Origin: Chloroflexota bacterium
GTDB lineage: Bacteria > Chloroflexota > Anaerolineae > B4-G1 > DUEL01
NCBI GenBank assembly: GCA_014874475.1
Contig: JADBJJ010000027.1
Span: 95,793-159,792 of the forward strand
DNA: 64,000 bases
Direction of reading: 5' to 3'
This document shows positions 3,378 to 45,856 of this stretch, one piece after another. The position numbers and the translations under genes are program-made. Below the pieces are notes generated by a model, which did no database searches, had not been told where the DNA came from, and saw nothing but the letters and a program-made list of their open reading frames with translations. How positions within the stretch are numbered: the first letter of the stretch is position 1; each line of letters begins with the position of its first letter.

Positions 3378-3700
3378 CTACGACCCGACCGTGATCAAAT
3401 CCTTGATCCCTGCAAACGTCGTCGGGCCGATGCTGGGCACGTCCGGAATCTCATCAATGGCTCCGAATGGCCCGTTGGCCTCGCGGTACGCTACGATGCG
3501 CTGTGCCGTTATCGGCCCGATGCGCGGGGGTGTCTCCAACTCCGCTGCGGTGATAGTATTGATGTTGACCTTGACTCCTGTTGTCTCCCTAAGTATTAAC
3601 TCCGCCGCTTGCCCCCAGTGATGGCGGACTGGCTTTCTCCCGACGCGGCCTGTAGACCTGCTGCGGATCCCGCACCTCCCGTGCTTTCACTTTCGTGCTT
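3378..3700 (-). pseudogene. comEA: ComEA-family helix-hairpin-helix DNA-binding protein, C-terminal fragment only, 5'-truncated by IS insertion.
   Basis: The minus-strand translation reads …GVKVNINTITAAELETPPRIGPITAQRIVAYREANGPFGAIDEIPDVPSIGPTTFAGIKDLITVGS*, a classic ComEA HhH domain. The reading frame runs straight into the IS end at 3701, and there is no Met in the remaining frame. Confidence 0.6.
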
Positions 3701-4582
3701 GTGATTGTTCCAAAAATTGGCATAGAGTTTGAATTTCAAATATTTCCCCATTTACTGCTCTTTCTTATGCGGCCATCAGTTCCACCAGGGAAATCTTCCC
3801 TCTCCTCAACCCTCCGAATAGGCTGCTTACATTACAACACCGACTCCGCGCTTCTACCCGGCACACCGGGTGCTTCAACCCCAATGCATCGGCCACCTTC
3901 TTGAACCCATCCGCATCATCGGTGACCATCACCTCCGCCTGAACCATCTCGGCGACCTCCCGCAACCACTCCTCCAGCGTCTCTGCCGTCTCGTCTTTCA
4001 GAACCCGGATGCTGATGATGACCCTCTTCTGATCATCCACCGCCACCCCGACCGAATCCATTCCCCCCGGCACTTCACGCTGGTGACATCCCCACCGATG
4101 ACGTTCACCCGCCCTCCTTTCTCCAACCACTGGCGACGCAAGCGCTGGGCTCTCTTCCCTGCCGCCTGTATATTCCGATAAACGGTGGTCTTGCCTAATC
4201 CGATGGGCTTCTTCAGGGTACTCCCCAGCAATGCCAGAAAGAGGGCTACGGCGCCGTAACTGAGTTCCAACAAGTACAGAATCCCACTCACCGCTCGTAG
4301 GGCATCCGAATGATGCGCCCGGGAGACACCCGCTGGGTAGGCCCGAAACGTCCGCCGACAACGGAGACAGCGATAGCGCATCGCCTCCACTTCCTCATAC
4401 TCCAGGTCTCGGAGGGGTTTGGGGCACACTTGGAGCGCCTTGAAAAAGCCCCCACCGCAAAAAGGACAACGGGTCGGGGGAGCGGGGCTGGTGTTCACGA
4501 CCGGAATCCGTAGATTGTAAGTCCTCAATGTTCTCACCTCCCACAGAATCTCCCCCTATTTTACCATACCCGGAACAATCAC
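3701..4582 (-). mobile_element. IS1-family insertion sequence (~882 bp) with imperfect terminal inverted repeats (GTGATTGTTCC at both ends).
   Basis: The ends are 3701 gtgattgttccaa and 4572-4582 ggaacaatcac (reverse complement). The internal InsA-like (Zn-finger plus HTH) and InsB-like (DDE) coding regions are present. A related end fragment occurs at 45385-45559. Confidence 0.65.
3765..4537 (-). pseudogene. IS1-family transposase (InsAB'-like) split into two overlapping frames by a frameshift at a G6 run.
   Basis: ORF 3998-4537 carries CPFC…CLRC zinc-finger and HTH motifs plus '…NVIGG'. ORF 3765-4361 continues 'MDSVGVAVDDQ…VTDDADGF', which parallels IS1 InsB 'EMDEQWGYVG…MTDGWPLY'. The frame change maps to the C6/G6 homopolymer at 4063-4068. 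Confidence 0.6.
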
Positions 4583-4666: not shown

Positions 4667-6364
4667 ATGGCGGGTAAAAAAACCCTTCCTGGCCAGTTCC
4701 GCCAGAAAATCCAGTGGTGGTACTGGCGCCATGCCGATGAATGGCCCATTTCGGCTCTCAAGCGATATATCAAAGCTCTCTTTATCCTGTTGTTATGGAC
4801 TCTGACAGCCATTGGGCTCTTCCGCCTCCTGATGTTCCTGCTTCCTGATACTCTCCGCATCCCACTGACAGGCAGAGAGACGGGCGAAGCCTCTAAAGAA
4901 TCCGTTGCCCTCCTGGGCTCCCTCCTTGCTGCCCTGATCGGTTTCGCCCTTCAGCAGTGGAAGGGTCAGGAAGAGGAAGAACGGCGACATCAGGAGGAGG
5001 AAAACAGCGCCATATCCCTGATTGAGGAGAGGCTTTGTGACTCTCGCGGAGATTTATCAGAGATTGCACGCCACTATCTGGACTTCCGAAAGAAAGGAGG
5101 TGTTTGGCAGAGTAACAGAGTCCGGGCGAGGAGAGAAGAGATTTGGGAAAAGTTAGCACCTCCAGAACTCCGATGCGCCATAGCTGTGATGGAAAACCTG
5201 CCGGAAATAAAGGATTTTGATTGGTCGGAACAAGTGGATGCTCTCCACTGGGCCTCTAATTATCTGGATGAAGATTGGCAATCCCGGGCGGTTAACGCCC
5301 TGCTTGATCTGCAGTGGACGGAGAAAGCATGGCGTACGATTCTGTATATGTGGCCTGAGGTATCTCTGGGCAAAGCCCTCTTCATCCCGGACCAACGGAC
5401 CGTTCAGGGCCTTCATTTTTTGAAGTTGAAGGTCAACCCGTTCGGTTCGGAAAGGGCGGAAGCAGATGCCGATCTGCTGAAGGCCCGGGTTATCCCTTCG
5501 TGGTGGGAAAAATTGGCATCCCTCTCTGATGGGCTTTTCTTCACTGCGCCTGGAGGCGGCAGGACTGCCGCTGCGCTTCTCCTGGCCTACGACGTTCTGG
5601 ATAAGAGAACTGCATTTCCCGTCTACTGCCGGATAACGACAGCCCAGTTAGGCCTGGCTGACCTGGCTCGGTGGACAGCACAGGCGATAGCCCGATACAT
5701 CGCGCTTTCCCCTCTCGCTTTCACAAAATGCTCCTACGACGCCAGGCGGGCGATCAAACGGCTCCTTTTCGGCTATATGCCGGCAAACCCCCTGTTGTAT
5801 CTTCAGGAGGCAGGGCTGCCGCTCATAGGAGAGGGCGGAAAGGTGCTGGAGGAGTTCAGGACCCCTCTCGCCGATTCATCCAGGCCAGCCTTCTCTCAGA
5901 CCGATCCTCTCGCCTTGTTGGGCGAAGCCCGCCCAGCGGATTTCCCCCGCACTCTGATTCTGGCAGATGTCCAGGGAGTCGTAGATACCGAAAATGTTGT
6001 CCTCTCTTTTTATGGCTTACACAAAGCACTGGAGCAGGTCGGGGTTACCCTTCAGGTCTTTCTGGCTGCGTCCCCTGCTACAAACCTGCAGAGATACGGA
6101 GAGTTGCTGGAATGGTCGGAGGAAGACCTCCGGGCTTTGCTTCGGAACCGGCTGATCTTCCTTTCCCCCGATGACTCTCTGGATGCCTGGTGCGACATGC
6201 GGGTATGGGAAGAGGATTCAGTGGAGGAGCGGCTTATAAAAGCAGCGGAACGCAACCCGCGCAGGTTGATTCAAAAAGGCAACGCTCTACTTCAGCGCAT
6301 TGGCGAGACAAGGCGCCGGCTGAGACCCGAAGATGTGGATGAAGTGCTGGGCCAGAATCTCTGA
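4667..6364 (+). CDS. Membrane-anchored protein (N-terminal TM helix) with a degenerate P-loop. It is a paralog of the next two NTPases.
   Basis: GGAGGAGA lies before ATG 4667. There is a TM segment (ALFILLLWTLTAIGLFRLLMFLL). The motif 'TAPGGGRTAAAL' corresponds to APAGGGKTAL in the paralog, with K->R in Walker A. 'TLILADVQG' is Walker-B-like. The stop overlaps the next start (TGATG). Confidence 0.55.
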   Translation: MAGKKTLPGQFRQKIQWWYWRHADEWPISALKRYIKALFILLLWTLTAIGLFRLLMFLLPDTLRIPLTGRETGEASKESVALLGSLLAALIGFALQQWKGQEEEERRHQEEENSAISLIEERLCDSRGDLSEIARHYLDFRKKGGVWQSNRVRARREEIWEKLAPPELRCAIAVMENLPEIKDFDWSEQVDALHWASNYLDEDWQSRAVNALLDLQWTEKAWRTILYMWPEVSLGKALFIPDQRTVQGLHFLKLKVNPFGSERAEADADLLKARVIPSWWEKLASLSDGLFFTAPGGGRTAAALLLAYDVLDKRTAFPVYCRITTAQLGLADLARWTAQAIARYIALSPLAFTKCSYDARRAIKRLLFGYMPANPLLYLQEAGLPLIGEGGKVLEEFRTPLADSSRPAFSQTDPLALLGEARPADFPRTLILADVQGVVDTENVVLSFYGLHKALEQVGVTLQVFLAASPATNLQRYGELLEWSEEDLRALLRNRLIFLSPDDSLDAWCDMRVWEEDSVEERLIKAAERNPRRLIQKGNALLQRIGETRRRLRPEDVDEVLGQNL

Positions 6365-7791
6365 TGAGCACAGAACTGCTTGAGTCCGAATCTCCCCCAA
6401 AGCGGTCTGCCGGTTCAGGGGCCAACCCTCCTGGCCCAGTGGCCTTTCGGTTCCTTCGGGCCGAGGAGGAGCCCTGGCTTTCGGCCTGTTTTGTACCTCC
6501 ACCGGAATTCAGCCGCATGGCCGAGTCTCGCTCCTGCGTCATTTTTGGCGAGCCGGGGAGCGGCAAAACGGCCATTTGTCGGGAATTACAGGCGCGCAAT
6601 ACTCGCCCGGATGGTAGGCCCGTGCGCCTGATGACCCCCTGGAGACCTTCTCCGCCCCCGCTGGAGGTCCGCCCCGACCTGGCATGGGTCAGACGACTGG
6701 TGGAAGGGCTACTGGACGCCTGCGCTGCGGCGCTGGTCCAATACCTCTGCCGGTTTCCAGAGGATTACACCCGTGCTCCTACCTGGGCCCAGGACCGCCT
6801 GATCTGGTTCATCCACCGATACACCCTCGGTCAGCCGGAAGTCCGATGGGGGCCGTGGGCAGAAGGCTCCTATCCCGGCGCCCCTCTGATCCGGCGGATT
6901 CTGAGCGCGCCCGTCCCCGTCATTCTGTATGATGATGCCTCTCCGGAGATGGTAATGGCGGAATTGCTCAGCGGATTGGGGGGACTGGGTTTAGAGGGTC
7001 TCTGGGTGATAGCCGACGGCCTGGAAGGGTGGGCCAACGTGGCCTCGGAACATCTGACGGAGAGCCTGAAATCATTTCTTTCCACCCTCTCTTTGTTTGG
7101 CCAATACAGCCCGGTGTACAAGTTGTTCTTGCCAGATGAAATGGAGCCAGCCATCAGCCGCGCCGAGGGGCTGAGCCGACGGCGGATAGAGGGGGTCCGG
7201 ATCCGGTGGGATGCTCCTGCCCTGAAAAGTCTGTTGGAACGGCGCCTGGCTTTTGCGTTCGGGCGGGAGACATTCCCCTTAGAGCAACTCTGTAACGCCC
7301 CTGGGCTACCCGGATGGCTGGAGAAAGTGGGGGGAACATCGCCCAGAGAATGGCTGGACCAGGTGGCATTGCTGGCAGAGTATTACGCGATGCAACCTCA
7401 AAGTGCGCCTATTGACGAGGAAACGTGGAAAACACTGCGGCGGGAACACCCTCTGCGCGTTTACTTGGACGAGGAGAAGCGACAGGTAAGGATTGGAGGC
7501 CGTCTGATAAATCTGGAGGACTTACCAGCAAAAACCTATGAAATGCTCCGCTACCTGTATCGCCACAGTGGCCGGGTGGTCACTAAAGCCGAATTGTACT
7601 TCCGGGCGTATCTCGGCAAGGACCGGGTTCCTCGCCAGGGGGATAATGATTACGAGTGGCCTACCCGATATGCAGGCCTGATAGACACAAACCTCTGGCG
7701 TCTGCGACAAGCGATAGAGCCGGACCCCGACGATCCGGTCCTCCTGATCACTCGCCGGGGGCATGGCGTCATTCTTCAAGTTCGGTGGTGA
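6364..7791 (+). CDS. P-loop NTPase fused to a C-terminal OmpR/PhoB-type winged-helix DNA-binding domain.
   Basis: Walker A is GEPGSGKT and Walker B is LWVIADGLEG. The C-terminus ('TYEMLRYLYRHSGRVVTKAELYFRAYLG…NLWRLRQAIEPD…LLITRRGHGVILQV') matches the trans_reg_C fold. It is translationally coupled to the upstream gene. Confidence 0.6.
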   Translation: MSTELLESESPPKRSAGSGANPPGPVAFRFLRAEEEPWLSACFVPPPEFSRMAESRSCVIFGEPGSGKTAICRELQARNTRPDGRPVRLMTPWRPSPPPLEVRPDLAWVRRLVEGLLDACAAALVQYLCRFPEDYTRAPTWAQDRLIWFIHRYTLGQPEVRWGPWAEGSYPGAPLIRRILSAPVPVILYDDASPEMVMAELLSGLGGLGLEGLWVIADGLEGWANVASEHLTESLKSFLSTLSLFGQYSPVYKLFLPDEMEPAISRAEGLSRRRIEGVRIRWDAPALKSLLERRLAFAFGRETFPLEQLCNAPGLPGWLEKVGGTSPREWLDQVALLAEYYAMQPQSAPIDEETWKTLRREHPLRVYLDEEKRQVRIGGRLINLEDLPAKTYEMLRYLYRHSGRVVTKAELYFRAYLGKDRVPRQGDNDYEWPTRYAGLIDTNLWRLRQAIEPDPDDPVLLITRRGHGVILQVRW

Positions 7792-7896
7792 GAAATGGGT
7801 AAGGTAACTGCAAGCCATCTTAGAGAGATTTGCAATCTCAGCAAGCCATAGTTGTGCCATAATATATCTACACTCTCATAAGGAAGGGGTGAGAAT

Positions 7897-7986
7897 ATGC
7901 CATTTTTCCTATCCGGCGCCTTCCTACCTGGCCCGGCGCAAACCGTGTGCCCACTTCTTCACCCTCCCGCTTCCCTCTTCCCGTAA
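7897..7986 (+). CDS. Small ORF (29 aa, MPFFLSGAFLPGPAQTVCPLLHPPASLFP) with a strong SD, translationally coupled to the following NTPase gene.
   Basis: AAGGAAGGGG sits 7 nt upstream of ATG 7897. Stop TAA (7984-7986) overlaps ATG 7986 of the downstream gene as TAATG. The downstream gene has no SD of its own. Confidence 0.35.
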   Translation: MPFFLSGAFLPGPAQTVCPLLHPPASLFP

Positions 7987-9179
7987 TGGCTTCTCCAGAT
8001 AGCCCTATCGCTCAGATGCCAGGTGCGCCGGAGGTGACCGCATGGCTGAGTTGGGCCGGGTTTCGGTTTGACCCCTTCGGGCCCCTGGATGCTGCCGCAG
8101 ATCCCCACCTCAGCGAATATCTGGTCGGTCACCATATCTTTGCGCGCGTCTGGGGAGACGACTTATCCTGGGTTTTCGCTCCGGCAGGCGGCGGTAAAAC
8201 GGCTTTGCGCATCAGTGTGATGCAGGCCTGCTGGGTCGGACAGGAAACCAATCGCCCATTTCCCATCCCCTATGTACCTCCTTTCCTTTCCTGGGGACAC
8301 GCGCATCCCTCGGAGGAAGAACACCTCGCGGCCCTGGCTCGTGCAGGCGCAATAGCGCTCTTCCTGGCTCTGGCCTACCGTGTCCACTGGTTTCTCCGCT
8401 TGGATAAGTCGGAGCGCCGGCGCGTTGCTGAAGTGCTCCGCTGGAATCTTCCCGGTCCCCTTCCAACCTATCTGGAGCGATGCCGTTCGATCCCCAGTCC
8501 TCAAACTCTGTCGGAGGTTCTGGACCCCGCTTTTATCCTCCGAAGCCCACCAACCCCTGCCGATCTATTGAGGTGGTGCGACGCTCTGGAAGCGGCTTGT
8601 GGGGATGAGGCACCGCCTCCCCTCCGCGAGCGGTGGATGCGACTGAAGGAACTCTTGCGGGATATGGGTTTCCCGAGCATCTACATTTTGCTGGACGGGC
8701 TGGATGGCACGCCCGAAACCATCGCCAATCCGTCAGCTATAGCCCTTTGTATGGAGCCTTTGCTACGATGGGCGGAGAAGTGGGCAGAGGAGCGGGTATT
8801 TCTGAAGGCGTTCCTTCCTGCGGAAACGCAGGCCTTGATGGAGGACCGCTTCCGGGACGTGTTTGCTCCCGCGCGGGTATCCGTCATTCACTGGACGCCA
8901 GACCTGCTGGCGGAGGTCGTTCGCCGACGAGTCTACGTGGCGACCGAGGGCGCCTTTGGTAGCTTAGATGCACTGGCATCCCCGGCCCTGCGGGATATAG
9001 AGACCTTGCTGGCCAAGACGGTCTATCCCCTTCCCCGCGAAATGCTGGTGATCACTCGCCGGGTGATAGAAGAGCACCTCCGGCATGGCGGAAATGGCCT
9101 TTTAGCAGAAGCGGATGTAAAGGCCGCCATCCAGTGGTACCAGACGACATCCATCTATTTCTCTTTTACCCCCGCATGA
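7947..9179 (+). CDS. P-loop NTPase, paralog of 6364-7791 but lacking the winged helix.
   Basis: Walker A is APAGGGKT and Walker B is IYILLDGLDG. The C-terminal region is colinear with the upstream paralog (VSVIHWTPDLLAEVVRRR vs VRIRWDAPALKSLLERRL). The likely true start is ATG 7986, coupled to the uORF; 7947 is the GTG given in the ORF track. Confidence 0.6.
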   Translation: MPTSSPSRFPLPVMASPDSPIAQMPGAPEVTAWLSWAGFRFDPFGPLDAAADPHLSEYLVGHHIFARVWGDDLSWVFAPAGGGKTALRISVMQACWVGQETNRPFPIPYVPPFLSWGHAHPSEEEHLAALARAGAIALFLALAYRVHWFLRLDKSERRRVAEVLRWNLPGPLPTYLERCRSIPSPQTLSEVLDPAFILRSPPTPADLLRWCDALEAACGDEAPPPLRERWMRLKELLRDMGFPSIYILLDGLDGTPETIANPSAIALCMEPLLRWAEKWAEERVFLKAFLPAETQALMEDRFRDVFAPARVSVIHWTPDLLAEVVRRRVYVATEGAFGSLDALASPALRDIETLLAKTVYPLPREMLVITRRVIEEHLRHGGNGLLAEADVKAAIQWYQTTSIYFSFTPA

Positions 9180-9190
9180 GGAGGTTTCAA

Positions 9191-10315
9191 ATGGCTATTA
9201 GACTTTCTCCACCTCCGTACTCACCGGACAAGTTTGTGGATCGGGATGACGAATTAAGGCGGCTGGATGCCATTCTAGAGTCCGGTGAAACGCGCGCTGT
9301 TATTTTTAGAGGAGAGCGCGGTGTCGGGAAATCCTGGCTACCCGCTCACTGGGAATGGCAACTTCGCCGACGTAAAGACCTCCAAGTGCTGCGGCTGGAC
9401 TTGAAGGAGTACAAGGGGAAGGATCCGGGGTGGGCCATGGCACATATGATCCGTCGGGTCAGCGAGAAGATCGGACAGGCTGGAGAGGCACTGGGCGCTG
9501 GCCTGACCGAGATGTCCCGTGCGCTTCTCCAGAATGTCCGTAAGATGGAGAAAAAGATAGTCCTTATCCTGGACCACGTTTATGAATCGGATTGGGCACT
9601 GCTGGCGTTGCTGGAGGAGTACCTGGTGGCTCCCCTGATCGCGGAGCCCCGCGTGTTCATAGTCCTGACAGGGCGCGGCCGATGGTATCCATGGAGGACA
9701 CCTGACCTGAACCTTCGCGCAGAGCGGATGGTTGTGGAACCGCTTCCAAGCGAGGAGGAAACTCAACGACAATTGGAGAAGCAAGCCCCTCAGAGCCGTC
9801 AAAAGGCCAGGGAAATCCACCGTTTGACAGGAGGTAATCCTCTGGCCAATTACCTTCTCGCTGCGGAGCCTCAGCCCGCTCAGGTATCAGAATCAGTTAT
9901 TGAGAGTTTATTGGAGCCGGTCCCGGAGGAAGACCGTCAGAAAATCCGGCAATATTTGGAAGCGCTCTGTGTTCTGCGCGCTTTTGATGAAGAACGGATT
10001 CCTGAAATGATGGCGGTTTATACTGAGAACTCTTCTTACCGGGAGTGGACATATGCTCAGGCCCGGCAAGTACGAGATGAACTGATCCGCTGGGCACTGG
10101 CTCAGTGGGATACTGACCAGAAAGCGTATACGCTGGATAGAATCGTCCGGCAGTTGACAGAAACTCATCTGAAACAAAATCGGCGGGAGAAATGGGTCGC
10201 TCTCCACCAGGCGGCGGCACAGATGTATGAGCGCTGGGCGAGCGATCACCCCGCTTCAGCGCCACGCTGGGAAAAAGAGAGGCAGTATCATCTTGAACGT
10301 TTGCAAAGCCCATGA
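9191..10315 (+). CDS. STAND/NB-ARC-type (AAA_16-like) NTPase, single-domain.
   Basis: GAGGAGG lies before ATG 9191. The motifs are 'FVDRDDELRRLDAIL…RGERGVGKSWL' (Walker A), 'IVLILDHV' (Walker B) and 'TGGNPLA' (GxP motif). Confidence 0.6.
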   Translation: MAIRLSPPPYSPDKFVDRDDELRRLDAILESGETRAVIFRGERGVGKSWLPAHWEWQLRRRKDLQVLRLDLKEYKGKDPGWAMAHMIRRVSEKIGQAGEALGAGLTEMSRALLQNVRKMEKKIVLILDHVYESDWALLALLEEYLVAPLIAEPRVFIVLTGRGRWYPWRTPDLNLRAERMVVEPLPSEEETQRQLEKQAPQSRQKAREIHRLTGGNPLANYLLAAEPQPAQVSESVIESLLEPVPEEDRQKIRQYLEALCVLRAFDEERIPEMMAVYTENSSYREWTYAQARQVRDELIRWALAQWDTDQKAYTLDRIVRQLTETHLKQNRREKWVALHQAAAQMYERWASDHPASAPRWEKERQYHLERLQSP

Positions 10316-10337
10316 CCGTTTACAAGGAGGCAGAGCG

Positions 10338-13300
10338 ATGAGCCCCTTTTTTATCCACCCGGAAGAAGTATACTTGAGCCCTATCGCCACGGTGACGCTG
10401 ATTGGTCGGAAGGGTGAACTGGATGTTTTGGAAAAAGCCATTCGGGATTGCCCCAACCGGTATGTGATTTATCTCACCGGACAGGGCGGCATTGGAAAAA
10501 CTCGACTGCTTCAACATCTCCTTCAAAACCCTCCCGAAGGCTTGCCCCTTCAGGTTGCTATCCAGCCGGTGGATATGTACCACACCATTAACCATACTGT
10601 GGAAGGGCTTCTCCAGTCCATCCAGAAGGTCATCTCCCCCGACGGAAGCGGCTTTGAACGGTATCTGGAGGAACGAGAGAGATGGATGCGGATACCCAGC
10701 GAAGAAAGTAAGCGGTGGCAAGAGCAACGGGAACGGATGATCGGGGCTTTTATCCAGGATTGGAACGCATTGGCGCAGAAAATCCGCATCCTAATCGGCC
10801 TGGATACGGTGGAGCGGCTGTTCCTCCAGGATGACCCTGTGGCTCACGAGTTGGGTCTTCCCCTTAGCACTCCCCTGGTCTACAACTGGCTTCTGAAAGA
10901 TTTCCTCCCCCACCTTCAAAATACGGTGGTCGTTCTGGCCGGCCGCCCTATTCCTATGCCTGTAGTAGAAGAACTCAAAAAAATCGGGGAGCTTATTCAA
11001 GTCTCGCTCTCAGGTTTTACGGAGGAGGAAACTTTAGAATACTTTCAAGCGCTCATCCCGCATCTCCAGGGGAGTTCTGAACCGCGAGACCGCATGGCCG
11101 CCGAGGTATTGTCCCGATGGAACGATGATCTCCGCCGGATGTTTTTCTACGGCCTGCGGGACGACGGCACGGTACGCCCGATCTTCCTTGCCCTGGTCAT
11201 AGACTACCTGACAGTCACTGGGCGGCCCTTTCCGGTAGGACGATCCCTGGTGGAAGTTAAGAGTCTCTCCGAGGAAGATCGGGAGAGGCTTCAAGAGGAG
11301 TTGTTGAAAGGGGTAGAGGAGGAAATTCGCAACGCACTCCATCCAACCGAAGAGATCGTGAGAGTCCTGAGTTGGTTGCACCGGGGGGCCGATGAAAATC
11401 TTTTAGGCCAAATCACCGGTATTGGCGAAGAAACGCTGAAAGAGGCATGTGAGCGGGTTCGCCGCCTCTCCTTTGTGAAAATCCGCCCTGCCGACCAGCG
11501 CCTCTTCCTGCACGATGAAATGTATGCCCTCCTCCGCAGTTTACACGGTGTCATCCCTGAGAGAGCGTTCAAACCCGTCCGGGAATATTATGGAGCGCTC
11601 ATTGATCAGATCAAGAAAAGCATCTGGAGTCTATATGAGGCTCAACCTTATCTTTCCCCTTCAGAGCAAGTTGCCCTGGAAACAACCCGCCTCCGGGAAG
11701 CGATAACGGAGGACCTCCATTACAAATTGCACCGGAGTTTTGACAAAGGGTTTGATCAGTATTTCATCTACGCCGAAGAAGCACTGGCTATGGGTGACGA
11801 GACACTGGATGTGGAGTTGCGAGCGGAATTGGTGGAATTTCTGAGGGAGCAAAACGCCTCCCCTCCAGCCGATGTCCGGGCCGACGCGGCCGTCCGGTGG
11901 GTCAAACGACAGATCAGTGCCGGAAATCTCAACGAAGCGCTATCACTGATCCAGAAAATACGCGAAGAAGCCCGGCATCTGGTTGAACCCGGCGGCCTTC
12001 TTACCCAGGCCGAGTTGGATATTGCCGAGGCCACAGTCTATCTTTACCAGGGAAATCTTGATAAGGCCGAACAACGGTTGTCCGAAGCCCAGCAAAATCT
12101 GGAGCGCTTTCAGGTCTCTCCAGAAACCCCCGTCCGTTTCAATGCTGTGATGGGTCGGTTGTATAATCACTGGGGGTATCTACGGAGGGTACAGGGGCAA
12201 TTTGGTGCTGCAGAGGAGAAGTATCGTAAGGCTCTCCCTTACTGGCGCGCTGCCAGCATGGAGGCTGAGCAAGCCAACACGTTAACCAATCTGGCTTTCG
12301 TGCTGGCATTACGGGGTCGGTTTGACGCCGCTCGCCGTCAGGCGCAGGATGCTTTAAAACTGCGCGGGCAACTGGGGATGACTGGCGCCGTTGCCTTTAC
12401 GCTAAACACTCTGGCCCAGATAGAGATTTATGCCGGGCAGTACCGGGACGCTGAAGATTGGGCCCGTCGGGCCCTGGCTGTGGCCCAGGGTGCCGGATTC
12501 CGTCGTGGCGAGGGACTGGCCCATCTCTCTCTGGCCAGCATTTACCGATATATGAGCGAGCCGCCTTGCCCGGCTGCAAATCGGCGAGAGTGGCTGGAGA
12601 AATCTCTGGAACACAGTTCCAGGGCGCGGGAAATCTTCTCCAAAGAAATCTCAGAGCCAGAGCGGCTCGGTACGGCCTATTACGAGGATGCCATTGCCCA
12701 CCAGGAATTCTGTCGCCCTCCCTTGATAGAAGGCATTGACGTTAAGAGGCACGCCGATCAATCTGAAAAATCGTTTCAGCAGGCAATGAAGATTGCAGAA
12801 GAATGTAGGTTATGGCCCCTTTATTTGGATGCGGGAATGGGTCTGGCTTGGCTTTACTATTATACCGAGGAGAAAGAGAAACTGGCTTCCCACCTGGAAT
12901 CTCTGGAGACATTTCTCCAGGAGCAGTTTGCTTCACTCCAGATTACTCCAACTGCCTCTCCATCAATTGGAGAAGATACAATTCTTGATGTTTTCTCTCA
13001 GAGGGCCCGATGGCACGTTTTAAGGGGAGTGCAGGCACTGGATGGCTTTGACTCGGCCCGTGAGAGCCGGCAAGCGCCGCCGTATCCTTCATTGAGGCGA
13101 GCCGCCCGGGAATTTGCTTTGGCCCTGGAATATGACACCCTGGTGGCGGACAACTTCCGGGACCTTCGTCGAGCCCTTAATCTCATCTATGAGCGGTTGA
13201 AAGTGCTGAACACGGCTGAGTTGAGGGCCTTCTATGAGACCATCACGGAAATGGCTGATGAATTCCCCTGGAAGCCCCGCGAGGAATGGCGTTTGTGGAA

Positions 13301-13355
13301 AGAACTCGTGGATCACTTCGGCCCTTATGATGAACTGCGTCCGCCGGCCTTATGA
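10338..13355 (+). CDS. Large STAND NTPase: N-terminal NB-ARC-like ATPase plus central TPR repeats and a C-terminal domain of unknown function.
   Basis: AAGGAGG lies before ATG 10338. The Walker A is 'LIGRKGELDVLEKAI…YLTGQGGIGKTRLL'. TPR-like repeats fall at roughly residues 600-760 (…ANTLTNLAFVLALRGRFDAARRQAQDALKLR…). Confidence 0.65.
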   Translation: MSPFFIHPEEVYLSPIATVTLIGRKGELDVLEKAIRDCPNRYVIYLTGQGGIGKTRLLQHLLQNPPEGLPLQVAIQPVDMYHTINHTVEGLLQSIQKVISPDGSGFERYLEERERWMRIPSEESKRWQEQRERMIGAFIQDWNALAQKIRILIGLDTVERLFLQDDPVAHELGLPLSTPLVYNWLLKDFLPHLQNTVVVLAGRPIPMPVVEELKKIGELIQVSLSGFTEEETLEYFQALIPHLQGSSEPRDRMAAEVLSRWNDDLRRMFFYGLRDDGTVRPIFLALVIDYLTVTGRPFPVGRSLVEVKSLSEEDRERLQEELLKGVEEEIRNALHPTEEIVRVLSWLHRGADENLLGQITGIGEETLKEACERVRRLSFVKIRPADQRLFLHDEMYALLRSLHGVIPERAFKPVREYYGALIDQIKKSIWSLYEAQPYLSPSEQVALETTRLREAITEDLHYKLHRSFDKGFDQYFIYAEEALAMGDETLDVELRAELVEFLREQNASPPADVRADAAVRWVKRQISAGNLNEALSLIQKIREEARHLVEPGGLLTQAELDIAEATVYLYQGNLDKAEQRLSEAQQNLERFQVSPETPVRFNAVMGRLYNHWGYLRRVQGQFGAAEEKYRKALPYWRAASMEAEQANTLTNLAFVLALRGRFDAARRQAQDALKLRGQLGMTGAVAFTLNTLAQIEIYAGQYRDAEDWARRALAVAQGAGFRRGEGLAHLSLASIYRYMSEPPCPAANRREWLEKSLEHSSRAREIFSKEISEPERLGTAYYEDAIAHQEFCRPPLIEGIDVKRHADQSEKSFQQAMKIAEECRLWPLYLDAGMGLAWLYYYTEEKEKLASHLESLETFLQEQFASLQITPTASPSIGEDTILDVFSQRARWHVLRGVQALDGFDSARESRQAPPYPSLRRAAREFALALEYDTLVADNFRDLRRALNLIYERLKVLNTAELRAFYETITEMADEFPWKPREEWRLWKELVDHFGPYDELRPPAL

Positions 13356-45350: not shown

Positions 45351-45379
45351 CTCTGCTATAATTATACACTGGTATAGGG
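45351..45379 (-). promoter_or_regulatory. Sigma70-type promoter (TTGACA-N17-TATAAT on the minus strand) with an embedded TATAC-N4-GTATA palindrome. It drives the corrinoid/methyltransferase operon through a ~270-nt 5' UTR.
   Basis: The reverse complement reads cTTGACAatttccctataccagtgTATAATtat. The same motif recurs at 61810-61838. Confidence 0.5.
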
Positions 45380-45384
45380 AAATT

Positions 45385-45559
45385 GTCAAGGCCGTTCGGG
45401 GGTATAAGCGGACGGCGTCGGTGTTGAATGTGAGCAGCCTGTTAGGAGAATTGAGGAGAGGGAAGATTTCCCTGGCGGAACTGATGGCCGCATAAGAAAA
45501 AGGCGGTAAATGGGGGGATATTTGAAATTCAAACTCTATGCTAATTTTGGAACAATCAC
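45385..45559 (+). mobile_element. Solo right-end fragment (~175 bp) of an IS1-family element related to 3701-4582, in inverted orientation.
   Basis: It is about 90% identical to the reverse complement of 3701-3870, including the transposase C-terminus (…NVSSLLGELRRGKISLAELMAA*) and the terminal GGAACAATCAC. Confidence 0.6.
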
Positions 45560-45856
45560 CGTGTCCCCCGTTCCCTTATAGACTGCAACCTGCGGGTATG
45601 GGCAGATGGGACGAGTCCGAAGCACATTGATGCGAAGTGTATCAAACCTGGCCGCGATGATCTGGTCGGGCGCTACCCCGTCCTCCACCCATGCCTGGAT
45701 GGCCGCGAGCCAGTCAATGGTATCCGGACCATCCCCGCCTCCGCAGTGTGTTACCCCGGGCAGCAGAAAGAGGCGGAAGAACTTCTGTGTCTTCTCCAGA
45801 CCGTCCATTGCTTTGACGACACTGTTAGGTAGTTGATGTTGTTTCCCTACACTCAC
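45536..45856 (-). pseudogene. C-terminal ~100-aa remnant of a tannase/feruloyl-esterase-family gene. Its last 7 codons and stop are supplied by the IS end.
   Basis: 'FRLFLLPGVTHCGGGDGPD…AIQAWVEDGVAPDQIIA' matches the family C-terminus. There is no N-terminal catalytic part, because the upstream sequence is another gene. Confidence 0.45.

Follow-up and report, generated by a model that had tools for sequence, protein, structure and literature searches.

An insertion sequence (IS) of 882 bp was identified in a 64,000-nucleotide stretch of DNA (the window) from a Chloroflexota bacterium (contig JADBJJ010000027.1 of GenBank assembly GCA_014874475.1, positions 95,793 to 159,792). The element is very probably a dead, non-autonomous, internally deleted remnant of a Chloroflexota IS of about 1.3 kb, and not a member of the IS1 family, to which it had been assigned in the original prediction made from the DNA letters alone. 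An internal deletion of about 410-460 bp would have removed the insertion domain and the catalytic Glu of its transposase, and would have been accompanied by small insertions or deletions (indels) at the deletion junction and by a 1-nt frameshift in or just 3' of a run of six G residues (G6). Both ends of the element are kept but the gene is ruined by the deletion, the frameshift and the junction indels, and the element would therefore be incapable of self-transposition. The loss of the 5' part of a comEA-like gene, with anything beyond it, and the present position of the remnant, 85 bp upstream of a gene that is unrelated, may be due to a deletion or rearrangement mediated by the element or by a pair of copies. 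The parts of the element are as follows.

3701-4582, minus strand: defective insertion sequence of 882 bp with inverted tips, transposase homology of at most 57% to proteins of 388-399 aa, and full-length relatives that share the tips
4560-4582, minus strand: left inverted repeat GTGATTGTTCCGGGTATGGTAAA, upstream of the transposase, with a subterminal TGGTAAA motif
3701-3723, plus strand: right inverted repeat GTGATTGTTCCAAAAATTGGCAT, with a degenerate subterminal motif and one extra A
3998-4537, minus strand: 5' part of the transposase, frame 0, 179 codons, reading out of frame to a stop at 3998
3765-4067, minus strand: continuation of the transposase in the -1 frame, with homology down to the stop at 3765-3767
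4045-4068, minus strand: zone that must hold the 1-nt frameshift, including the G6 run; no stop interrupts either frame across the homology switch
3834-3860, minus strand: internal deletion junction (at about 3855-3860, directly after ...HPVCR) and small compensating indels

Ends and size of the element

The element is an insertion sequence with terminal inverted repeats, as had been predicted. Its 11-bp tips (GTGATTGTTCC), at 3701-3711 and 4572-4582, form a perfect inverted pair. The left inverted repeat is identical to the family consensus GTGAyTGTTCcAAaatTGGTAaA at 21 of 30 positions, and the right inverted repeat resembles that of a second IS fragment of the window (45549-45559). The tips by themselves are weak evidence, as three or more matches were found in 13 of 100 shuffles. 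The ends are nevertheless genuine, because about 60 related full-length elements elsewhere are bounded by the same tips. The consensus of 20 distinct elements of the family is GTGAcTGTTCcAAaatTGGTAaA, and both ends of the window copy fit it.

Full-length relatives in other genomes

A search of 5.8 billion protein clusters identified 319 relatives of the transposase, the best of which is 57% identical, and the top scorers are nearly all 388-399 aa in length. An exhaustive profile search of 1.84 billion representatives yielded 321 clusters (50% identity level) at E<=1e-30. In a profile-guided scan of GTDB representative genomes, 79 loci were detected, of which 75 are from Chloroflexota according to the record titles; the groups represented are Anaerolineae, Thermoflexales, Chloroflexia, Ktedonobacteria and Herpetosiphon. 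No match was obtained by tblastn of plasmids, and a scan of genome contigs queried with the window protein detected no relative.

The elements of this family are mostly about 1260-1345 bp long and have inverted repeats of about 23 bp. Full-length elements contain one open reading frame (ORF) only, which encodes a transposase of about 390 aa. One unbroken ORF spans the whole family profile in 61 of the 79 loci, and the breaks in the rest are scattered. Two long-read metagenome-assembled genomes (MAGs) carry the element in multiple copies, with full lengths of 1339 bp and 1344 bp, respectively, and perfect 8-bp target direct repeats; the ends of these copies (GTGAyTGTT(C/T)CAA..TGGTAAA) have the same tips as the window element. 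A perfect 8-bp target duplication was found at 32 loci (20 distinct elements), and several more loci have one that is offset by 1 base.

The invariant columns of the family are D150, D208, C226, H229 and E346, with D150, D208 and E346 forming the acidic triad. The 138 residues from D208 to E346 hold an alpha-helical insertion domain (helices 227-329), which is located between beta5 and the Glu helix. The AlphaFold model of a full-length member is of high confidence (predicted local distance difference test score, pLDDT, 93.4) and consists of a zinc module rich in beta structure, a set of three helices and an RNase H fold, in which the helical domain separates beta5 from the last catalytic helix.

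Two side observations were made on these loci. The contigs that carry four of the 79 (L015, L030, L033 and L040) are short and were assigned to bins of Terriglobales, Gammaproteobacteria, Gloeobacterales and Parachlamydiaceae, which could be binning contamination or rare transfer from Chloroflexota to other groups. At another locus (L042:2881-5592, from the Chloroflexia MAG MFD00032.bin.3.204), two full-length copies that differ at 4 nt are arranged in tandem as CACTACCC-IS-CACTACCC-IS-CACTACCC. This arrangement could reflect another insertion into the site already hit, unequal crossing-over or an effect of long-read assembly.

Transposase gene and internal deletion

The 5' part of the window transposase encodes a four-Cys zinc finger (C24, C27, C57 and C60), a helical DNA-binding region and the first catalytic Asp (D150), and was aligned to positions 4-225 of the family profile with 296 bits. 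The part in the -1 frame encodes beta strands 2-5 of the RNase H fold, the second catalytic Asp (in TDDAD) and the Cys of the CxxH motif, and after the deletion junction it ends with the last approximately 22 codons (NVSSLFGGLRRGKISLVELMAA*). The window protein aligns to residues 1 to about 227 of its relatives and then to their last 22 or so residues (...NVSSL.G.L......L.ELMAA). Compared with the relatives, approximately 136 codons are absent from the window copy (family residues 228-363, approximately). Among the lost codons are those for the His of CxxH, for the alpha-helical insertion domain and for the catalytic Glu (E346), which is part of the invariant motif DGTNNxxE. Because the insertion domain and the catalytic Glu are deleted, the gene is dead whatever the nature of the frameshift.

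At the junction, the family-homologous reading RSAESVL (KRxESVL in the family) sits in the third frame. This reading is returned to the frame of the ORF by an extra T at about 3834, which is present relative to a related fragment at 45.4 kb of the window. The frame changes at the junction are decay, not design. The fragment used in this comparison is the following.

45370-45559, plus strand: solo 3' end of a related IS copy, 190 bp, with the last 43 or so codons and the right inverted repeat

This fragment is 89% identical to 3701-3859 and keeps codons that are gone from the 882-bp element, and the deletion in the latter is therefore confirmed. The original prediction described a zinc-finger and helix-turn-helix (HTH) segment that continues into a DDE domain with a broken frame. 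Its outline holds, since both parts are present and are frameshifted inside the catalytic domain; the assignment of these parts to the InsA and InsB proteins of IS1 is not supported, and the internal loss of about 136 codons had been overlooked.

Four independently broken copies of the family (L003, L039, L061 and L066) have an ORF that is interrupted directly past CxxH, at profile positions of about 234-240. These interruptions lie near the start of the deletion in the window copy, which may be a coincidence or may mark a fragile spot.

Position and nature of the frameshift

The frame breaks past the codon for the first catalytic Asp, within the catalytic domain's first beta-hairpin. Because both frames are open where the homology changes frame, the indel can be placed by homology only. 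With a profile built from 111 relatives, each possible 1-nt repair was scored: those at 4053-4057 (...KCRGEWISVGVAVDD) reached 296.5-297.0 bits, and the repair of the G run to G7 (...KCRGGMDSVGVAVDD) reached 291.8 bits. This comparison of sequences modestly favours, by about 5 bits, a base lost 6-12 nt 3' of the G run, although the run itself may still be the site. The break had been predicted to fall exactly at G6. The tract is real (C6 on the plus strand, G6 on the coding strand, at 4063-4068), but the position of the break is not fixed to it and the profile prefers 4053-4057.

The frameshift is a product of mutation or decay and not of recoding. The programmed frameshift that had been offered as an option was not borne out, because the family is of the single-ORF type, the run contains no canonical slippery heptamer (CGG GGG GAA does not conform to X XXY YYZ) and the downstream frame lacks the catalytic Glu.

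The comEA remnant and the flanks of the element

The left flank of the element contains the following features.

3378-3686, minus strand: comEA-like remnant, truncated at its 5' end, with a helix-hairpin-helix (HhH) domain at 3387-3578
3687-3689, minus strand: TGA that ends the HhH frame at a distance of 11 nt from the IS

The HhH domain is matched by Pfam HHH_3 (7.9e-19, 68 bits) and by TIGR00426, with 54.8 bits against a cutoff of 53.1. The full-length ComEA model TIGR01259 gave 58.0 bits against a cutoff of 152, and the remnant is not a complete gene with a start codon and an N-terminal membrane anchor, signal peptide or SLBB domain; the HhH domain is all that survives of comEA. The 36 codons upstream of the domain contain no start codon and no recognisable domain, and no ATG, GTG or TTG is present between the TGA and the HhH domain. 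An SLBB-like match at 3640-3684 was weak and not significant (E 0.14). The closest ComEA relatives are short, HhH-only proteins that are 60-69% identical, and no synteny was found at the one locus examined.

The HhH frame had been described as open into the IS end. It is instead closed by the TGA, and the frames that are open across the boundary are the other two (3596-3751 and 3589-3723, minus strand). A 1-nt change at the G5 run of the stub (C5 on the plus strand, 3623-3627) would join either of these to the HhH frame, and the comEA stub may carry a frameshift of its own. Frame repairs into either upstream frame gave 59.5 and 58.5 bits, compared with 58.0 bits for the unrepaired frame, and did not extend the match to ComEA.

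Of the 8 positions compared between the sequences that flank the element, TCGTGCTT and AAAGAACG, none is identical, and within 30 nt of its ends the two sides have no word of at least 6 nt in common. On the right the element is followed by intergenic sequence, and it ends 85 bp upstream of an unrelated plus-strand gene (4667-6364). The proposal that the insertion truncated the 5' end of comEA is correct to the extent that a 5'-truncated remnant without a start codon abuts the element; a simple insertion is not supported, there being no duplication. The 5' half of comEA, for which a search of the other flank of the IS had been proposed, was found neither there nor elsewhere in the window. Because the family makes 8-bp duplications but the flanks share none, the simplest reading is that these flanks were never one target site, and that they were brought together by IS-mediated deletion or by recombination between two copies.

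Independent short-read assemblies

The region was compared with the Logan short-read assemblies of two runs, SRR15510188 and SRR16588181, in which four contigs (L087, L088, L089 and L090) carry the flanks. Both junctions between the IS and its flanks were reproduced at 100% identity in the assemblies of both runs, and the sequence of the comEA remnant is identical in the two independent assemblies. In the 13.7 kb of the window that was cross-checked, all 58 homopolymers of at least 5 nt agree, with zero indels. The four flank contigs end inside the element, 49-55 bp in at the left (3749-3755) and 92 bp in at the right (4490). These contig breaks suggest that, in the samples concerned, the interior of the element occurs as a repeat or is polymorphic.

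Family assignment

No curated cutoff of Pfam or NCBIfam was reached by the repaired window protein (257 aa), and its best weak matches are to ISL3 and IS1595. The NCBIfam models matched at E<1e-3 by 48 full-length members of the family are those of IS66 (45 members), IS6 (43), IS256 (40), ISH6 (36), ISL3 (31) and IS1 (4), and every curated-model score is far under its cutoff for all members listed individually. In Pfam, DDE_Tnp_IS66 and Transposase_mut were matched weakly at E<1e-3 by 26 and 12 of the 48 members, respectively (best E 1.4e-12), and the listed scores fall under the gathering cutoffs. A search of PDB sequences with the family profile returned nothing relevant. The best structural match to the model of the full-length member is the transposase of ISCth4, which belongs to the IS256 family.

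The original prediction assigned the element to IS1 and named an alignment outside that family as the outcome that would count against it. This outcome was obtained. The NCBIfam model of IS1 (NF033558, cutoff 100) gave 16.0 bits with the repaired window protein and 18.8-18.9 bits with two full-length relatives. In an hhalign comparison of the family profile with Escherichia coli InsAB', 16 columns of the zinc knuckle were aligned with a probability of 9%, and the match is confined to that knuckle. IS1 elements are compact (about 0.74-1.2 kb), with a short spacing between the second Asp and the Glu, encode InsA and InsB with a -1 frameshift at A6C, and make 8-9-bp duplications. The small size of the window copy, the order of zinc finger and DDE domain, the similar zinc knuckle and the loosely similar tips are IS1-like. 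The family differs from IS1 in that the DDE domains do not align and in that intact relatives are 1.3 kb long, with one ORF (unbroken in 61 of 79 loci), a large insertion domain and no programmed frameshift between two ORFs. The compact size of IS1 is not shared either, as the full-length relatives are about 1260-1345 bp long with 138 residues from D208 to E346, and the 882 bp of the window copy are the product of deletion. The compact IS1 enzyme has no room for a large insertion domain.

The closest likeness in architecture is to IS256. The transposase of ISCth4 has the catalytic residues D175, D241 and E348 and an alpha-helical insertion domain that bears C/DxxH, and the element has 8-bp duplications, a subterminal TGTAAA motif and copy-out/paste-in transposition (PMC7780238). 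In common with ISCth4 (PDB 6XG8/6XGX), the family has a single ORF of about 390-400 aa, an RNase H-like DDE domain interrupted by an all-alpha insertion with C/DxxH at its start, target duplications of 8 bp and a TG(G)TAAA-like motif in a subterminal position of the inverted repeats (PMC7780238). This architecture was found in the full-length relatives, and the 8-9-bp target duplication of IS256 is likewise present in the family; the window copy has no duplication and lacks the His, the insertion domain and the Glu. By analogy with ISCth4 only, a copy-out/paste-in mode of transposition is suggested for the family. The differences are that the NCBIfam model of IS256 (NF033543) gave 19.9-41.6 bits among the matches listed against a cutoff of 150 (best E 1.9e-11 over the 48 members), and that the second Asp and the Glu are 107 residues apart in ISCth4 versus 138 in the family. 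The tips of IS256 elements begin with G(G/A), whereas those of the family begin with GTGA, and the N-terminus of the family is a four-Cys zinc finger.

IS66 TnpC is matched by most members of the family (45 of 48, best E 1.1e-16) over the whole protein, including the region of the Glu. An N-terminal zinc finger, an 8-bp duplication, ends of the GT.A type and a C.AH..R motif past the second Asp are found on the side of the family and are also traits of IS66, in which single-ORF elements of the ISBst12 type exist. The NCBIfam model of IS66 (NF033517) gave 21-38 bits among the matches listed, against a cutoff of 180, and DDE_Tnp_IS66 gave 12-23 bits against 23.1 for the three members shown. The tnpA-tnpB-tnpC operon was not found, as the 1.3-kb elements have no accessory ORFs corresponding to tnpA and tnpB. 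The protein of the family is about 390 aa long, compared with about 500 aa for IS66 TnpC, and its tips are GTGAyTG, not GTAAGCG. The best scores of single proteins (29-48 bits) come from the NCBIfam model of IS6, the family of IS26, whose matches cover the HTH and the stretch from the first to the second Asp; the 8-bp duplication and the size of 0.8-0.9 kb, similar to that of the window copy, are further likenesses. These scores compare with a cutoff of 125 bits, and the matches end before the region of the Glu. In IS6 enzymes the Asp and the Glu are closely spaced, without an insertion domain, and the ends of the elements begin with GG.

We place the family in an IS256/IS66-like (Mutator-like) DDE group that is outside all curated models of Pfam and NCBIfam and outside IS1. 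A literature search for names of IS subgroups gave no usable description; ISfinder may already name this family.

Alternative explanations

It is extremely improbable that the element belongs to IS1 and produces its transposase by a programmed ribosomal or transcriptional slip at G6. The zinc knuckle does resemble that of IS1 InsA (RYxCxxCxxTF), the tips GTGATTGTTCCAA resemble the IS1 repeat GGTGATGCTGCCAAC at about 10 of 14 positions, and IS1 itself is known to use a -1 frameshift. These likenesses do not extend to the DDE domain, which cannot be aligned, and they are set against an IS1 model score of 16 bits where 100 are required and against the match of this model to 4 of 48 relatives. The relatives are single ORFs, intact in 61 of the 79 loci, with no recurrent break at the position of G6. 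The G run is not a heptamer of the X XXY YYZ type, and no slip would give an active enzyme, since the downstream frame is without the catalytic Glu. It is also quite improbable that the six G are a sequencing or assembly error for a true G7, in a gene that is otherwise as read. Homopolymers are classic sites of error, a repair to G7 restores a frame of the right length, and the interior of the element is outside the independent short-read contigs. The agreement of 58 out of 58 homopolymers in the cross-checked 13.7 kb, with zero indels, argues against such an error, as does the preference of the profile, by about 5 bits, for a repair outside the run; with about 136 codons deleted, the copy would be dead in any case.

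The 882-bp form could also be a live non-autonomous element (a miniature inverted-repeat transposable element or deletion derivative) that is moved in trans, with its N-terminal zinc-finger/HTH ORF as a possible inhibitor. Both inverted repeats are kept with perfect tips, the DNA-binding ORF is intact to about codon 158, and in two samples the short-read contigs stop within the ends, as is usual at repeats. This explanation is unlikely, as no second copy of the deleted form is present in the window, the subterminal motif of the right repeat is degenerate and there is no target duplication. No protein more than 57% identical was found among the 5.8 billion clusters, in which this genome, or one almost identical to it, seems to be represented, because an NCBI-sourced protein 100% identical to a window-encoded one is present. 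Exact-protein look-ups (ORF-A, contig-edge ORF-A, ORF-B and ATG-start ORF-B) found none on record, and a metagenome scan for the 19-nt left end gave four chance matches, none with a transposase. A fuller version is also unlikely. In it, the relatives of about 390 aa form a distinct uncurated IS family, nearly restricted to Chloroflexota, in which a zinc finger is combined with an IS256/Mutator-like DDE domain, GTGAyTGTTC ends and 8-bp duplications, and the 882-bp copy is a trans-mobilisable deletion derivative whose zinc-finger/HTH ORF damps the transposition of intact copies. It is very unlikely that the short element is an assembly artefact, that is, a collapsed or mis-threaded path through full-length copies. 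IS copies are notorious assembly breakpoints and the independent assemblies do not bridge the interior, but the out-of-frame sequence and small indels at the junction are typical of decay and not of mis-joins in an assembly graph, both outer junctions are exact in two runs, and the rest of the contig agrees perfectly.

The anatomy of the element, the traits of its family, the missing residues and the absent duplication were observed directly. Four points weigh against the interpretation of the element as a dead, internally deleted remnant of a 1.3-kb Chloroflexota IS. The independent contigs do not cover the interior of the element (3756-4489), which includes the G tract and the junction at about 3857. 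No parent or near-identical copy was found, and the deletion is deduced from homologues that are 50-57% identical and from the 190-bp fragment that is 89% identical. The placement of the family is built on weak matches to hidden Markov models (HMMs) and on similarity of fold. The missing duplication shows only that the flanks differ; the rearrangement, like the order of events, is what we infer from it.

Annotation of the region

The element is an ordinary decayed mobile element of a kind found in most genomes and has little weight for biology in general. The annotation should be that of a pseudogene-bearing IS with an internal deletion, from an IS256/IS66-like family without a curated model and not from IS1, and the frameshift should not be marked as a recoding signal. 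The family, with 321 clusters and multiple copies in long-read Chloroflexia MAGs, could justify an HMM of its own and an ISfinder entry, if none exists. The absent duplication and the comEA and tannase stubs beside IS ends mark the region as one shaped by IS-mediated deletions.

Scans of the window for Rfam families and tRNA genes found nothing. The acetate-CoA ligase encoded in the window is 85% identical to proteins from MAGs of Anaerolineae, in keeping with an Anaerolineae-like member of the Chloroflexota. The IS fragment at 45370-45559 abuts the 3' end of the tannase/feruloyl-esterase stub (45536-45856, minus strand). This stub consists of 106 C-terminal codons, corresponds to positions 391-481 of the 490 positions of Pfam Tannase, and is the second IS-associated gene remnant in the window. 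To the right of the 882-bp element, the poorly characterised plus-strand genes at 4667-13355 encode a 565-aa protein that matches nothing in Pfam, an AAA ATPase carrying a winged-helix Trans_reg_C domain, a protein of the ATPase_2 type and a TPR/MalT-like STAND protein of 1042 aa. This group of genes has the appearance of a variable island, possibly one with a role in defence or signalling.

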